Origin: an uncultured Alphaproteobacteria bacterium
GTDB taxonomy: Bacteria; Pseudomonadota; Alphaproteobacteria; Rs-D84
DNA: 64,000 bases
Direction: 5' to 3'
Assembly: GCA_949878575.1 (NCBI GenBank)
Contig: CATLAX010000001.1
Coordinates: forward strand, 320,220 to 384,219
Shown here: positions 17,979 through 43,198 of the stretch, piece by piece
Position numbering within the stretch: the stretch's first letter is position 1
Layout: each line of letters starts with the position of its first letter
Translations under genes and position numbers: made by a program
The notes under the pieces: generated by a model
What the model saw: only the letters and a program-made list of their open reading frames with translations
Told to the model about the DNA's origin: nothing
The model's database searches: none

Positions 17979-18069
17979 GCAATGTGCTCTTTTTATGCTA
18001 TAATTCATAATGCATCGGGTGACGCCCGGTGCGGGGTGTAGTAACCTCGTGTAGTTTTTTCTCCAACCC

Positions 18070-37596: not shown

Positions 37597-37673
37597 CGGG
37601 GCGTAGCTCAGTCTGGTAGAGTGCTTGCTTTGGGAGCAAGATGTCGCATGTTCGAATCATGTCGCCCCGACCA
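37597..37673 (+). tRNA. tRNA-Pro (anticodon TGG)
   Basis: Cloverleaf: acceptor CGGGGCG/CGCCCCG, anticodon stem CTTGC/GCAAG, loop TTTGGGA, T-arm GTTCGAATC, 3' CCA encoded. Confidence 0.9.
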
Positions 37674-37773: not shown

Positions 37774-37883
37774 AAAAAAAGCCCGACAAGCGGGCCGATA
37801 GAGGATGTTGTTGCCAACAGAGCCCCACAGAGTATTTCTTTATTGTAGATTGCTTTCCAATTCAGTCCGTAATTTAGAAATAC
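37774..37883 (-). ncRNA. Predicted tracrRNA of the type II-C system
   Basis: The minus strand reads 5'-...CUGAAUUGGAAAGCAAUCUACAAU AAAG AAAUACUCUGUGGGGCUCUGUUGGCAACAACAUCCUCUAUC GGCCCGCUUGUCGGGC UUUUUUU. The 22-nt anti-repeat pairs with 19 contiguous bp (plus wobble) to the crRNA repeat 5' end GUUGUAGAUUGCUUUCCAAAUUGG. A Neisseria-like ACAAUAAAG junction is present, and a terminal GC hairpin plus U7 forms the terminator. Confidence 0.65.
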
Positions 37884-37890
37884 ATTGCGC

Positions 37891-37918
37891 ATTGTAGTTA
37901 TAGGAATTAGAATGTCAA
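37891..37918 (-). promoter_or_regulatory. Sigma70-like promoter for the tracrRNA (TTGACA-N16-TACAAT)
   Basis: On the minus strand, TTGACA lies at 37918..37913 and TACAAT at 37896..37891. The predicted TSS is about 37883. It is divergent from cas9. Confidence 0.6.
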
Positions 37919-37934
37919 GAAAAAGACAATAAAC

Positions 37935-40900
37935 ATGCGGATATTTGGTTTTGATTTGGGAATTGCAAGCATCGGCTGGGCGGTTGTTGACATAGAAAAA
38001 GAAAACAATAACCCAGAGGTGGAACGTGCCACTGTTGGTAAAATACAGCAGTCTGGGGTGCGTATTTTTAGTGTCGCAGAAAACCCAAAGGACGGTTCTT
38101 CATTGGCGGCACCGCGCCGCGAGAAGCGGCGGGTCCGTCGTGCGTTGCGCAGGAAGGCGCTGCGAATGAAAGAAATTCGCGCATTGTTGGAAAATAGCGG
38201 CCTGGGCAACCAAAATATCGTTGTTAATTCTGATGATATTGATGTCTGGGCTTTGCGTGCCGAAGATGCCTTTTGCCGCAAGTTGTCGCCACGTGAACTG
38301 TCGCGTGTACTGGTTCATATGGCCAAACATCGTGGGTATAAGTCAATGCGTAAGTCCGCAGAGGAAAACGATAAAGAAACCGGAAAGGTCCTTGTTTCAA
38401 TCGCGCGAAATCGCGAACGTATGGGCGAGTATAAAACAATGGCCCAAATGATTTATAAGAGCGGCTGCAATGATGCAAAAAAATATCGCAATGGTGATGG
38501 CGTATATGATAATTCAATCCCGCGGGAAGAAATAGAGAGGGAACTGGATTTAATTTTTGACGCTCAGCAAAAATATGGGTTGTTTACGCCAGAATTACTG
38601 GAACAATACAAAAAAATCGCATTTCGTGTGCGGCCGATGCAGTCTGTTGGTAAAATGGTTGGCGGGTGTACGTTAGAGCCGAATTGTTTGCGCGCACCGA
38701 AAGAGGCGCCCACGGCAGAATTATTTGTGGCGCTGACCCGTATAAACAACATGAAAATTGTTATTGATGGTGAAGTTCGCTCTGTAAATGATGAAGAACG
38801 GACGGCCATCCTGGATTTGTTGCGCAAGACGCAAACGGTTAAATATAAAACATTGCATAACAAAATATGGAAGGGGCAAGACGTCGTTTTTCGCGGTGTA
38901 AAAGAAGAAACTCAAGATTTTTATTCCATGGCCGGATGGCATAAATTAAAGAAAATCTTGAATGATGCCGATATGGCGGATATGCGAATGCTTGACCGGA
39001 TTATGAAGGTTGTTGCAACCCAGAAAGATGAAGCGGCAATAGCAAAAGAATTACGACGCAAGAAAGTCCCAGAAAAATATATTGCAAAATTAAAGGAATT
39101 GTCTACGTCCAAATTCATAAATCTGTCTTTGCAGGCCTTGTATAAAATTGTCCCGGAAATGATGCGCGGGCTGACGTATGACAAGGCTTGTGCGGCGGTC
39201 GGCTATGATTTTAAAACCAAAGTATCCGGGGATGTAAAGGTGGATAATGGCTGCATTGCAGAGATTTCAGAATGGACGCGTGTCCCGGTTGTTAATCGTA
39301 CTGTAGCACAGTTTCGCAAGGTGTACAATGCGCTGGTCCGGAAATATGGCGCCCCGGATCAGGTGAATTTAGAGGTTGGACGCGAATTAAAGAATAACTT
39401 TGATGATCGTAAAAAAATAGAACGTCAACAGAATGAAAATCGCGATAAAAATGATAAAGCGCGCGCAGAATATGAGGGGCTGGTCGGGCGCAAGGCAACG
39501 GCCAAAGAAGTCTTAAAATATAAACTGTATCAGGACCAAAACTGCCAATGCATGTATTCTGGCGAGGCGATTGATTTAGCGCATCTGGATGATTATGAGA
39601 TTGATCATATCTTGCCGTATTCGCGGTCGTTGGATAATTCTTATACCAACAAGGTTTTGGTTAAATACACAGAAAATCAGGCAAAAGGCAACAAGACGCC
39701 ATATGAATATCTTGGCAATACCGCACGCTGGGACGCGTTTGTCGGGCGTGTGTCCGCAATCAAGACTGCCTTGGGGGGACGTAAGATTGCAAATCTATTG
39801 AACAAAGATTTTGAAGCAAAAGAAGAGGATTTTCGCGAACGCAATGCAAATGATAACGCGTATGCATCCCGCCATATCCGCCAGATTTTAAGCATCGCTT
39901 TCCCGGAATTGCGTGTTGATGTTCGCGCCGGGGCATTGACACATTATTTGCGCGGGCAATGGGGGCTGGAAAAATCGCGTACGGAATCAGACAGGCACCA
40001 TGCCCAGGATGCGATTGTTGTCGCCTGTGCAACACAGGGGATGGTGCAGTATTTGTCAACAATATCTGGGTTGTTTGAAAATAAACGTAACGAGAAGGAT
40101 AAACCGTGGTGGAATAGGTTAAAACAAAACATTCAAGAACCGTGGGATGGATTTCGTGCCGATGTTTTGCGGTCGTTGGATGAAGTGTTTGTTTCGCGCA
40201 CGGTGCGTGGCAAGGCAACGGGCTCGGCGCATAAGGATACCATCAATTCACCAAAAACTAATAAAGGCAGCATGATTTTGCCGCGTGGACGCGCCGATAA
40301 AGACAATATGTTCCGCATGGATATCTTTAAAAAAGACGGAAAATATGTGGTTGTGCCAATATTTGTGGCAGACACGGTTGACAAAAAACGCCAAGATATA
40401 TTTTACCCACAACCCGCCAAGGCGCATAATCCGGTCGCAGTTGATGATACTTATGAATTTGTTATGACATTGCACAAGGATGATTATATCAAGATCACGA
40501 CAGCAGATGACAAAATATATGAGGGGTATATTGTTCAATGCAATATGCCTGTTGGACAGTTTGTTATAAGAAGTACTGATAATTCCGCGGTATTTTCTGT
40601 CAAAACAGATACCTTTGAACCAGACAATTTTATTGTCATAGATGGTAATTTGTGTAAAGTTAAGGATTATGAATGCGGTAAATTGCGTGCAGTGCGCATG
40701 AATGGTGTTGTTGAGGAAATTGATGCCATGAAGAAGCACATGCGTAGTGGCGAGGTCGCGAAAAAGCAAATACAGACAGTAGATAAATATGAAAAGCGTG
40801 ATGCGCAAAAAACGATAAATGTTGGTACTTTTAAAAACTTGCAAAAATTTCATATTGATGTTTTGGGCGATAGGTCAGAGGTTAAATCTGAACATCGTGC

Positions 40901-41006
40901 GCCGGTCTGCGCTATAAAACCGCAATCAGAAAAAAGAAAAGGAAGGAAGCAACCTAAAAGGAATAAAAATGGGGTGGCGAATCCTTCAACTAACGAAACC
41001 GTGTAA
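37935..41006 (+). CDS. cas9: Cas9, type II-C, compact (1023 aa)
   Basis: RuvC-I is MRIFGFDLGIASIGWAVV (catalytic Asp). An Arg-rich bridge helix (RREKRRVRRALRRKALR) follows. The HNH region is YEIDHILPYSRSLDNSYTNKVLV...N. RuvC-III is HHAQDAIVVACATQG. Confidence 0.95.
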   Translation: MRIFGFDLGIASIGWAVVDIEKENNNPEVERATVGKIQQSGVRIFSVAENPKDGSSLAAPRREKRRVRRALRRKALRMKEIRALLENSGLGNQNIVVNSDDIDVWALRAEDAFCRKLSPRELSRVLVHMAKHRGYKSMRKSAEENDKETGKVLVSIARNRERMGEYKTMAQMIYKSGCNDAKKYRNGDGVYDNSIPREEIERELDLIFDAQQKYGLFTPELLEQYKKIAFRVRPMQSVGKMVGGCTLEPNCLRAPKEAPTAELFVALTRINNMKIVIDGEVRSVNDEERTAILDLLRKTQTVKYKTLHNKIWKGQDVVFRGVKEETQDFYSMAGWHKLKKILNDADMADMRMLDRIMKVVATQKDEAAIAKELRRKKVPEKYIAKLKELSTSKFINLSLQALYKIVPEMMRGLTYDKACAAVGYDFKTKVSGDVKVDNGCIAEISEWTRVPVVNRTVAQFRKVYNALVRKYGAPDQVNLEVGRELKNNFDDRKKIERQQNENRDKNDKARAEYEGLVGRKATAKEVLKYKLYQDQNCQCMYSGEAIDLAHLDDYEIDHILPYSRSLDNSYTNKVLVKYTENQAKGNKTPYEYLGNTARWDAFVGRVSAIKTALGGRKIANLLNKDFEAKEEDFRERNANDNAYASRHIRQILSIAFPELRVDVRAGALTHYLRGQWGLEKSRTESDRHHAQDAIVVACATQGMVQYLSTISGLFENKRNEKDKPWWNRLKQNIQEPWDGFRADVLRSLDEVFVSRTVRGKATGSAHKDTINSPKTNKGSMILPRGRADKDNMFRMDIFKKDGKYVVVPIFVADTVDKKRQDIFYPQPAKAHNPVAVDDTYEFVMTLHKDDYIKITTADDKIYEGYIVQCNMPVGQFVIRSTDNSAVFSVKTDTFEPDNFIVIDGNLCKVKDYECGKLRAVRMNGVVEEIDAMKKHMRSGEVAKKQIQTVDKYEKRDAQKTINVGTFKNLQKFHIDVLGDRSEVKSEHRAPVCAIKPQSEKRKGRKQPKRNKNGVANPSTNETV

Positions 41007-41874
41007 ACTATCGGTAAAACAAAAACAATTATTTTACGAATCAGATGATACCAAAACAACGATTCCGATAGAGGATTTATCGGTCGTTGTTTTGGAAACC
41101 GGCTTTGTGCAACTAACGGGACATGTCTTGTCAGAATTTGCGGCAAACGATGTTGTGCTGCTGACCTGCGATGCATCGCATTTGCCGGCGGGAACCTTTT
41201 TCCCGTTTCACGATAACTCGCGTTATTCGGAAATGGCGCATATTCAAATTTCGGCCAGCGAACCATTAAAAAAGCGTGTCTGGCAATCGGTTGTGCAGCA
41301 AAAGATTCTGAACCAGTCGGCGGTATTGCATGCATTTGGAACAGAAAACGCATTGTCTGAAATTGCAAAACGCGTACAAAGCGGCGATAGTGATAATCGT
41401 GAGGCCCATGCGGCGCAATTATATTGGCGATTGTTGTTTGGTGATTTTACGCGACGTGATGATGCGAACATTATAAATAAAGCACTAAACTATGGATATG
41501 CCATTGTGCGCGGCTGCGTGGCGCGTAATATTGTTGCGTCCGGATTATTGCCATGTTTTGGTATCCATCATGATAATCAGCTGAATCAATTTAATCTGGT
41601 TGATGACATGATGGAACCGCTGCGCCCGTTTGTGGATTATAGTGTGGCAAAGTTGGACTTGTCCGATTGCTCAGACTTAACACCAGAATTAAAAAATAAA
41701 CTAATATCAGTATTATTATGTAACGCAAATGTGGGGGGTGAAGCAATATCGTTGCTTAAGTGTGCAGAAATGATGTCGGCATCACTGTCCAAGGTATTTA
41801 GACAAAAGGATTGTCGTTTATTGGTGTTGCCGGTGTTTGATAATTCTCTGCTGGATATGGAGGATTTTGACTAA
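40969..41874 (+). CDS. cas1: Cas1 integrase
   Basis: 301 aa. MGWRILQLTKPCKLSVKQKQLFYESDDTKTTIPIEDLSVVVLE is a typical type II Cas1 N-terminus. Its start overlaps the cas9 3' end by 38 nt. Confidence 0.93.
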   Translation: MGWRILQLTKPCKLSVKQKQLFYESDDTKTTIPIEDLSVVVLETGFVQLTGHVLSEFAANDVVLLTCDASHLPAGTFFPFHDNSRYSEMAHIQISASEPLKKRVWQSVVQQKILNQSAVLHAFGTENALSEIAKRVQSGDSDNREAHAAQLYWRLLFGDFTRRDDANIINKALNYGYAIVRGCVARNIVASGLLPCFGIHHDNQLNQFNLVDDMMEPLRPFVDYSVAKLDLSDCSDLTPELKNKLISVLLCNANVGGEAISLLKCAEMMSASLSKVFRQKDCRLLVLPVFDNSLLDMEDFD

Positions 41875-42203
41875 TGGCGCAATATGGGGAACGATTTATG
41901 AGAATGATAGTATTTTTTGATTTACCAACACTGACAAAGCAAGACAGAAAACAAGCGTCCAAATTTCGTAATGCCTTGTTAAAGGATGGGTACTATATGA
42001 TGCAACTGTCTGTTTATTCAAGGATTTGTAAGGGTATGGCACAGGTTGAAAAACATGCCGGACGCCTAAAATGCTTGATTCCGCCCAGTGGAAGTGTTAG
42101 ACTGATGACGGTAACAGAAAAACAGTTCGCTGATATGGAAATATTGGTCGGCGAATCGAAAAAACAAGAAAAAATAGGTGCAAAGCAACTTGTTATGTTT
42201 TAG
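41874..42203 (+). CDS. cas2: Cas2
   Basis: MRMIVFFDLPTLTKQDRKQASKFRNALLKDGYYMMQLSVYSRI. The ATG overlaps the cas1 stop. Confidence 0.9.
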   Translation: MAQYGERFMRMIVFFDLPTLTKQDRKQASKFRNALLKDGYYMMQLSVYSRICKGMAQVEKHAGRLKCLIPPSGSVRLMTVTEKQFADMEILVGESKKQEKIGAKQLVMF

Positions 42204-42227
42204 TTTTTCTTTAAAGAATTACAAAAT

Positions 42228-42256
42228 AACCCGCTATATTCAGCGGGTTGTTTTGT
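42228..42256. terminator. Hairpin terminator between cas2 and the array (usable from either strand)
   Basis: aacccgctatattcagcgggtt + gttttgtt. Confidence 0.55.
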
Positions 42257-42260
42257 TGGT

Positions 42261-42956
42261 ATTATATCAAAACCAATTTGGAAAGCAATCTACAACCGTA
42301 TCGTCTTGTTTGGGAACATTGGAAAGATTATATCAAAACCAATTTGGAAAGCAATCTACAACTATGCCTCGTTCTCAATATCGTGACTTTATATTATATC
42401 AAAACCAATTTGGAAAGCAATCTACAACCACATTCATCGTCAAATACGCCAAGACGGTATTATATCAAAACCAATTTGGAAAGCAATCTACAACCGTAAA
42501 TTGTTTGGTACGCGCTTGTTATCTATTATATCAAAACCAATTTGGAAAGCAATCTACAACGTGAAGACCTCTTTTATGACTTTAAACAGTATTATATCAA
42601 AACCAATTTGGAAAGCAATCTACAACAAGAGTGTTGGCGTGAAATTCAGTTGCCTTATTATATCAAAACCAATTTGGAAAGCAATCTACAACGACCGATT
42701 TGACTGGTGGCATCCGGAATTTATTATATCAAAACCAATTTGGAAAGCAATCTACAACCTACCCGATATTCTTAAATGATGACCATCTATTATATCAAAA
42801 CCAATTTGGAAAGCAATCTACAACATTGATTGGCATAAATGCCGTTGCTCGTAAATTATATCAAAACCGATTTGGAAAGCAATCTACAACCGCTTGTTGG
42901 GGCTGTATGTTTCCTGCAATATTATATCAAAACCAATTAGAAAAACAATCTATAGA
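42261..42956 (-). CRISPR. CRISPR array: 11 x 36-bp repeats, 10 x 30-bp unique spacers. It is transcribed on the minus strand.
   Basis: Repeat (plus strand) ATTATATCAAAACCAATTTGGAAAGCAATCTACAAC with an exact 66-bp period from 42261. Repeat 10 has one SNP (CCGATTT). Terminal repeat 11 (42921..42956) is degenerate. The reverse complement GTTGTAGATTGC...TTTTGATATAAT matches the II-C repeat style and carries an extended -10. Confidence 0.95.
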
Positions 42957-43198
42957 GTTGTGGGTTATTATTAAGAGCTATTTTATTGTATAAAAAAATC
43001 GGTTCGGAGTTTGCCGAACCGATTCATCGCCTTCTCATCTCATTTATAATATTACATAATTTTTATGTCTTTTCCAGTATTATTTTTTTTGCCAGTGCTG
43101 TGAAAACAGTTGTTTTATAGTTAAAATTTGTAATAATTATGAAACGATAATAATCCCATATGATTTTTGCCGCCCGGGGCGGTAAAATTATGTAAAAC

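Follow-up and report, generated by a model that had tools for sequence, protein, structure and literature searches.

The window that we analysed, a stretch of 64,000 nt from an uncultured alphaproteobacterium, contains a CRISPR-Cas9 locus in which a divergent tracrRNA on the minus strand is followed by cas9, cas1 and cas2 on the plus strand, a hairpin, and a repeat array that runs antisense to the cas genes. The protein-coding part of this locus and the flanking tRNA gene are as follows:

37597-37670, tRNA gene
37935..41006, plus strand, cas9, encoding 1023 aa (TIGR01865, E = 4e-200)
40969..41874, plus strand, cas1 of the NMENI / type II subtype (TIGR03639, 295 bits)
41874..42203, plus strand, cas2 (TIGR01573)

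Using ORF calls together with NCBIfam matches, the only adaptation or effector genes that we identified were cas9, cas1 and cas2, and the same search found neither csn2 nor cas4 at the locus. As this combination of genes is that of type II-C, the locus is, judged by its gene content, an intact type II-C CRISPR-Cas9 system of an uncultured gut alphaproteobacterium. Its flanks hold the tRNA gene, a 440-aa ORF that is unannotated and has no family match, and a gene for an HlyD-like adaptor. Among solved structures, the best matches to the Cas9 protein were 6jdq and 6kc8 (E about 1e-131), both of N. meningitidis (Nme) Cas9; this group and 8uza ranked ahead of 5axw and 4cmp as solved relatives, and 5x2g matched with E = 4e-72. 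The RuvC Asp and the HNH Asp-His residues are invariant in our alignment (A1). By these matches, Cas9 groups with the II-C lineage, and Cas1 is of the type II (NMENI) subtype. Two relatives from genome collections, with Cas9 proteins 84-89% identical to that of the window, are labelled as Alphaproteobacteria MAGs, and many further Cas9 relatives came from gut metagenomes.

The array downstream of cas2 is highly regular, and each of its repeats carries a promoter-like motif:

42261..42956, crRNAs from the minus strand, CRISPR array of 11 repeats of 36 nt and 10 spacers of 30 nt, with an exact 66-nt period
42261+66k to 42269+66k (k = 0 to 10), minus strand, extended -10 box TGATATAAT, repeat positions 28-36

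Read on the minus strand, the repeat is GTTGTAGATTGCTTTCCAAATTGGTTTTGATATAAT and begins GTTGTAG. The original prediction, that every repeat read in this direction ends in an extended -10 box, agrees with what we found, since TGATATAAT occupies positions 28-36 in all 11 repeats, with TG at positions 28-29 and the hexamer at 31-36. Each repeat accordingly has one copy of the motif TGNTATAAT on the minus strand, the first at 42261, the second at 42327 and the last at 42921. Throughout the window there are 24 such sites, against 2.5 expected from shuffled sequence; as the 11 repeat copies are duplicates of one sequence, however, this count says little, and conservation of the box was tested across independent loci instead, a test that it passed (see below). 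Within the repeat, the -35-like element matches poorly (TTGCTT, 3/6, at a 16-nt spacing), and a generic promoter scan did not call the repeats; this reflects a limit of the tool, which demands a 4/6 match at -35, rather than counter-evidence. Outside the array, TGNTATAAT is also about five times commoner than expected, with 13 sites against 2.5 (e.g. at 17996, 26859, 50151 and 63663), about five of which are intergenic by a crude ORF call. The first spacer base (crRNA sense) is A in eight of the ten spacers of the window, so that most repeat starts read TATTAT on the plus strand; this bias is absent both from the related locus L001 (T in 8 of 13) and from 819 pooled 30-nt spacers.

The strand from which the crRNAs are made can be deduced from the tracrRNA, which was located between the tRNA gene and cas9:

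37774..37884, minus strand, tracrRNA of about 110 nt, upstream of cas9, with its own promoter and terminator
37891..37918, minus strand, tracrRNA promoter (TTGACA, 16-nt spacer, TACAAT; 11 of 12 matches in the promoter scan)
about 37842-37874, minus strand, anti-repeat, with GGAAAGCAATCTACAAT at 37842-37858 (one mismatch to the repeat complement)
37780-37796, minus strand, intrinsic terminator of the tracrRNA (GC-rich stem, then a T run)

Beyond the array, the stretch GGAAAGCAATCTACAAT (37842-37858, minus strand) is the sole repeat-like sequence. The predicted repeat:tracrRNA duplex covers repeat positions 1-31 with about 30 bp, two bulges and G-U pairs (-34.5 kcal/mol). In L001, where repeat position 18 is T rather than the A of the window, the anti-repeat changes to match, a compensatory exchange. 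The tracrRNA promoter is kept in L001, L002 and L005, as is the tracrRNA as a whole, with its anti-repeat and terminator. The tracrRNA corresponds in sense to the plus strand of the array, so that only array transcripts from the minus strand can pair with it, which fixes minus as the crRNA strand. Thus, the minus-strand orientation originally proposed is upheld by the GTTGTAG start of the minus-strand repeat and by an anti-repeat whose pairing is limited to minus-strand transcripts. We had also considered the degenerate repeat of the array as the anti-repeat of a plus-strand tracrRNA, which was rejected once the real tracrRNA had been found upstream of cas9. Searching Rfam at the gathering threshold returned no tracrRNA or crRNA family, only weak plus-strand matches to CRISPR-DR50.

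Transcription of the array from the plus strand, by read-through from cas2 or from the TATTAT-like boxes at the repeat starts, with the minus-strand box being incidental, is to our minds extremely unlikely. TATTAT (5/6) arises wherever the base preceding the repeat is T, which holds for nine of the 11 repeats, and the scan lists a few plus-strand sites that join a spacer -35 with TATTAT; yet plus-strand transcripts would be of the same sense as the anti-repeat and could not pair with it, and type II repeats begin GTTGTAG or GTTATAG in the crRNA sense, which is minus here. Moreover, cas2 is followed on the plus strand by a hairpin and then a T-rich tract, and the flank common to the two protospacers described below lies on the side that guides from the minus strand would predict.

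The tracrRNA itself showed further features. Its predicted 5' end, GUAUUUCU (37883-37876), is perfectly complementary to AGAAAUAC (37839-37832), which lies just 3' of the anti-repeat on the minus strand; this pairing is kept in L001, L002 and L005, so that the free tracrRNA is predicted to close the anti-repeat into a loop. In the clade of the window (the window, L001, L005 and L008-L044) the tracrRNA is divergent from cas9 and pairs over ~30 nt with bulges. The distant relatives L059, L066, L069 and L073 have it upstream of cas9 and co-oriented with that gene, and the anti-repeat of L066 is full-length (36 nt).

In order to follow the box across independent loci, we scanned metagenomes by Cas9 alignment, which gave 80 loci, to which two genome loci were added. 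Arrays were held by 63 loci and yielded 25 distinct repeats, all of 36 nt (Cas9 identity 31-85%); all 63 arrays lie downstream of cas2, with the repeat opposite to cas9. The information content over these 25 distinct repeats was distributed as follows:

Positions 1-7 (GTTATAG or GTTGTAG), mean 1.69 bits
Positions 18-27, mean 0.65 bits
Positions 28-30, T28 1.4 bits, G29 1.8 bits, n30 0.1 bits
Positions 31-36, T31 2.0 bits, A32 2.0 bits, T33 1.0 bits, A34 1.8 bits, A35 1.2 bits, T36 1.8 bits

This profile of the repeat 3' end is, on the sequence comparison, that of an extended -10 element, TGnTAtaaT, with its middle n unconstrained. TG was present in 21 of the 25 repeats, and the hexamer matched at least 5/6 in 22. 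At the same time, positions 2-6 and 31-35 are complementary in 16-25 of the 25 repeats, forming a terminal inverted repeat. Because hexamer positions 31-35 thereby mirror the repeat 5' end, their conservation is partly confounded with constraint from the integrase or from repeat symmetry. The same complementarity lends itself to another explanation, namely that the TATAAT end, which abuts the acquisition leader where integration starts, is a Cas1-Cas2 integration signal or terminal inverted repeat, and that the minus strand is transcribed from a leader-type promoter lying upstream of 42956 into a single long pre-crRNA, which is cut by RNase III and 5'-trimmed, as in type II-A. The inverted repeat would, however, account for positions 31-35 only and cannot explain T28, G29 or T36: position 36 is T, and not the C that symmetry requires, in 24 of the 25 repeats, positions 28-30 and 7-9 lack complementarity, and T36, T28 and G29 all depart from the inverted repeat towards the promoter consensus, with n30 left free. 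Compared across loci, the box appears to be under selection as a promoter, rather than being kept by chance or by repeat symmetry.

Further evidence on this point came from the repeat at the cas-distal end of the array:

42921..42956, minus strand, extra repeat, the oldest and transcription-proximal one, with six substitutions and an intact box

The substitutions fall at positions 1, 2, 4, 12, 16 and 18, i.e. in the 5' half that binds tracrRNA and Cas9, and reduce the predicted stability of the duplex with the tracrRNA, from -34.5 kcal/mol to -19.4 kcal/mol, whilst TTGGTTTTGATATAAT is untouched. The neighbouring repeat has one substitution, at position 22. Mutated repeats are cas-distal in the window and in every mutated relative, and among complete arrays the cas2-proximal repeat is never mutated. 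The original prediction had made this degenerate repeat the transcription-proximal end, and we concur, as it lies at the oldest end of the array, where it has been described for type II-C (PMC12080349). Among 28 distinct complete arrays, the terminal repeat is mutated in 18, and none of the 86 substitutions that these contain falls in the eight specified positions of the motif (binomial about 5e-10), with one at the free n. As extra repeats are never integration sites, recognition by the integrase cannot explain why the box is kept in them. Such a repeat serves no spacer upstream of it, which would leave its 3' end a single task, that of driving the oldest spacer. Substitutions are likewise scarce at positions 19-27 of the extra repeats, which lie beyond the box, so that the pattern could partly reflect erosion from the outside inwards and not selection on the box alone. 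Nevertheless, that the box itself is never mutated in the decayed extra repeats of these 28 arrays is new relative to the published survey of type II-C systems, and it provides a sequence-only argument for promoter selection, the box being kept where integration and tracrRNA pairing are no longer served.

Both ends of the array are bordered by hairpins with the appearance of terminators:

42996..43025, minus strand, intrinsic terminator, 12-bp stem then TTTTTTT, about 40 nt upstream of the extra repeat
42228..42249, hairpin with an A run on one side and a T run on the other, 12 nt past the cas2-proximal repeat, with the shape of a bidirectional terminator

The upstream terminator is, from its structure, an insulator of the array against read-in transcription; a minus-strand gene feeding into it was not found upstream. 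Between terminator and array about 33 nt remain for a leader promoter, and this gap contains a weak promoter-like site (42994-42967; TTTATA, 16 nt, AATAAT), which could be taken in favour of a leader-driven pre-crRNA. In L001 the array adjoins sequence that reads as coding, with no leader. With a terminator 40 nt away in the window and coding-like sequence abutting the array in L001, there is little or no space for a leader promoter. Moreover, both experimental type II-C models use repeat promoters (PMC3656092, PMC5965381), and we consider it unlikely that the TATAAT end is an integration signal only, served by a single upstream promoter. We also noted weak minus-strand promoter-like sites at 43106-43076 that could yield a transcript of 50-80 nt ending at 42996-43025; the paper on the N. 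meningitidis scaRNA revealed no link to short transcripts beside the array.

On the cas2 side, the hairpin was identified from a minus-strand terminator call and a fold, and lies inside the presumed acquisition leader (42204-42260). Of 23 related loci that are not identical, about 18 have an equivalent hairpin 5-15 nt past the cas2-proximal repeat, with no conservation of its sequence (L001, L005, L008, L012, L032-L036, L044, L046, L058 and L060, and additionally L069, L073, L076 and L083). Rfam leader-peptide matches to the hairpin were judged spurious. Such a structure would end crRNA-strand transcripts before cas2, and transcripts of the cas operon before the array; among those stopped would be the product of the promoter in the last repeat, downstream of which there is no spacer. 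More tentatively, and with some doubt on our part, the repeat 3' end and the adjoining leader may form a single compact module of dual purpose with the hairpin built in, where the TATAAT end may be both a promoter and the leader-side repeat end for the integrase, and where the hairpin would silence the spacer-less repeat promoter, would block antisense transcription in both directions and would perhaps mark the integration site as well. The publications consulted on type II-C arrays discuss the upstream array end only.

We then turned to the spacers. A group of 19 arrays shares the repeat GTTATAGCTTCC...GCTATAAT, with Cas9 proteins about 47% identical to that of the window. In this clade, shared spacers lie at the end with the terminal repeat and unique spacers at the cas2 end, from which it follows that new spacers enter at the cas2 end, which is distal to transcription. 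The spacers of the window, compared with those of L001 and L005, include none that are shared, so that its polarity is deduced from where the degenerate repeat lies; L003, whose Cas9 is 98% identical, lies on a contig that ends inside cas2 and hence offers no array for this comparison. Two spacers, spacer 10 (42297-42326) and spacer 4 (42693-42722), match major capsid protein genes of Microviridae from the gut of rodents, pigs and primates with 1-2 mismatches, which points to a gut host under attack by microviruses. In each case the protospacer is followed, on its 3' side (crRNA sense), by GAA, tentatively the PAM, as this is the side expected for type II; the assignment rests on two protospacers, given that the arrays of L001 and L005 had no phage matches and that three exact 20-mer scans of viral contigs with other spacers of the window returned no match. 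These findings also bear on whether the locus is a silent relic in which the boxes no longer matter, something that the degeneration of the oldest repeat might suggest and that we regard as very unlikely: the reading frames of cas9, cas1 and cas2 are intact with conserved catalytic residues, 10 of the 11 repeats are identical or one base apart, the newest spacer matches gut microviruses with only 1-2 mismatches, and close relatives carry different sets of spacers.

For the type II-C system of N. meningitidis (Zhang et al. 2013; Heidrich et al. 2017), repeat-embedded promoters have reportedly been described. In N. meningitidis and C. jejuni, repeats are 36 nt long with TG at positions 28-29 and the hexamer at 31-36, and the box of the window has the same register. 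In C. jejuni, the repeats end GGTAAAAT and the 5' ends of primary crRNAs map to spacer position 5 (Dugar 2013, PMC3656092), RNase III and tracrRNA making the 3' end only (PMC3656092). For N. meningitidis, repeat-embedded promoters with dispensable RNase III processing have been documented (PMC5965381), and transcription begins at the sixth spacer base (PMC12477760). In about 650 type II-C systems, every repeat has been described as carrying a promoter and the last repeat as the site of acquisition (Feussner 2025, PMC12080349); the same survey found the extra (first) repeat to be mutated mostly in its first 15 nt and noted that terminators can precede the array (PMC12080349).

Since a perfect promoter box ends every repeat, each guide RNA is probably transcribed separately. 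We propose, with high confidence, a type II-C locus with per-repeat promoters and spacer-internal starts, whose array is confined by terminators; that the repeats act as promoters we regard, by sequence and by analogy, as a probable part of this scheme. We rely on homology with N. meningitidis and C. jejuni as to whether the promoters are active, where transcription starts, how long the guides are and what RNase III does. The crRNA-strand end of each repeat, TGaTATAAT, would be a consensus extended -10 element, usable by the housekeeping sigma-70 polymerase without a -35 box. Transcription would start about 5-7 nt into each downstream spacer, giving 5'-triphosphate crRNAs with a guide of ~24-26 nt, and would enter the next repeat, the first 19-31 nt of which would pair with the tracrRNA anti-repeat. 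Cas9 would bind this duplex, and RNase III would probably trim the 3' end, although probably not as an essential step. Terminators at both ends would restrict transcription to the array. At the oldest repeat, loss of the pairing half would prevent a guide-less crRNA, whilst the retained promoter would be the sole one for the oldest spacer. With new spacers entering at the cas2-proximal, transcription-distal end, per-repeat promoters would render expression independent of position in the array.

The Neisseria/Campylobacter form of II-C arrangement that had been suggested for this array is thus supported, as far as sequence can show, by the shared register of the box, its conservation in relatives and its retention in decayed terminal repeats, whereas two details of the original prediction required adjustment. 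A start inside the spacer stands by analogy; the figure of 23-24 nt for the guide is slightly short, since the models start at the fifth (C. jejuni) or sixth (N. meningitidis) spacer base, so that guides of ~24-26 nt are to be expected. Start sites probably vary between spacers, as spacer bases 5-8 differ and one spacer has no purine there. Similarly, the claim that no RNase III-dependent 5' trimming takes place is supported in that the 5' end is set by the start in both models, but RNase III still cuts the repeat:anti-repeat duplex to form the 3' end; by analogy, it very likely does so here as well, where the predicted duplex of ~30 bp would allow it.

As in N. meningitidis, there are only cas9, cas1 and cas2, the repeat is a 36-nt GTTGTAG...TGnTAnAAT with 30-nt spacers, and the array runs against the direction of the cas genes; its leader, where spacers are acquired, is cas-proximal and distal to transcription. 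The tracrRNA of N. meningitidis lies downstream of cas9, whilst here it is divergent and immediately upstream; the box is a perfect TATAAT rather than TACAAT, Cas9 has 1023 aa rather than 1082 aa, and the host is an uncultured alphaproteobacterium known from sequence alone. The minimal type II-C system of C. jejuni likewise ends each repeat in an extended -10 box (GGTAAAAT there), but its Cas9 is smaller and more distant (5x2g, E = 4e-72), and tracrRNA position and repeat sequence differ. The locus resembles type II-A (Streptococcus pyogenes) in having Cas9 with a tracrRNA, in the pairing of repeat and anti-repeat, and in the degeneration of its oldest repeat. Type II-A systems have one leader promoter, with transcription along the polarity of acquisition, need RNase III plus 5' trimming, and have repeats that end ...CAAAAC without a -10 box. 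Relative to the generalized type II-C scheme we found no difference, making the window a typical case: two of the three published ways of suppressing guide-less crRNAs are present, namely an extra repeat substituted within its first 18 nt and an intrinsic terminator that precedes the array (PMC12080349). As read from its sequence, the window is in keeping with published type II-C biology throughout, and differs only in its perfect TATAAT, its divergent tracrRNA and its host.

These observations add no new principle, but extend the per-repeat promoter design to uncultured gut alphaproteobacteria with microviruses as targets, and do so with a perfect consensus box. For users of the 1023-aa Cas9, they supply the tracrRNA and the orientation of the crRNAs, together with a guide that is likely ~24-26 nt long and a tentative GAA flank on the 3' side. 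Lastly, weakened boxes (TGCTACAAC, TGGTATTTT and TAGCTACACT) were observed in the related repeats of L036-L038, L080 and L083, and these arrays represent natural cases in which takeover by a leader promoter upon decay of the box could be sought.
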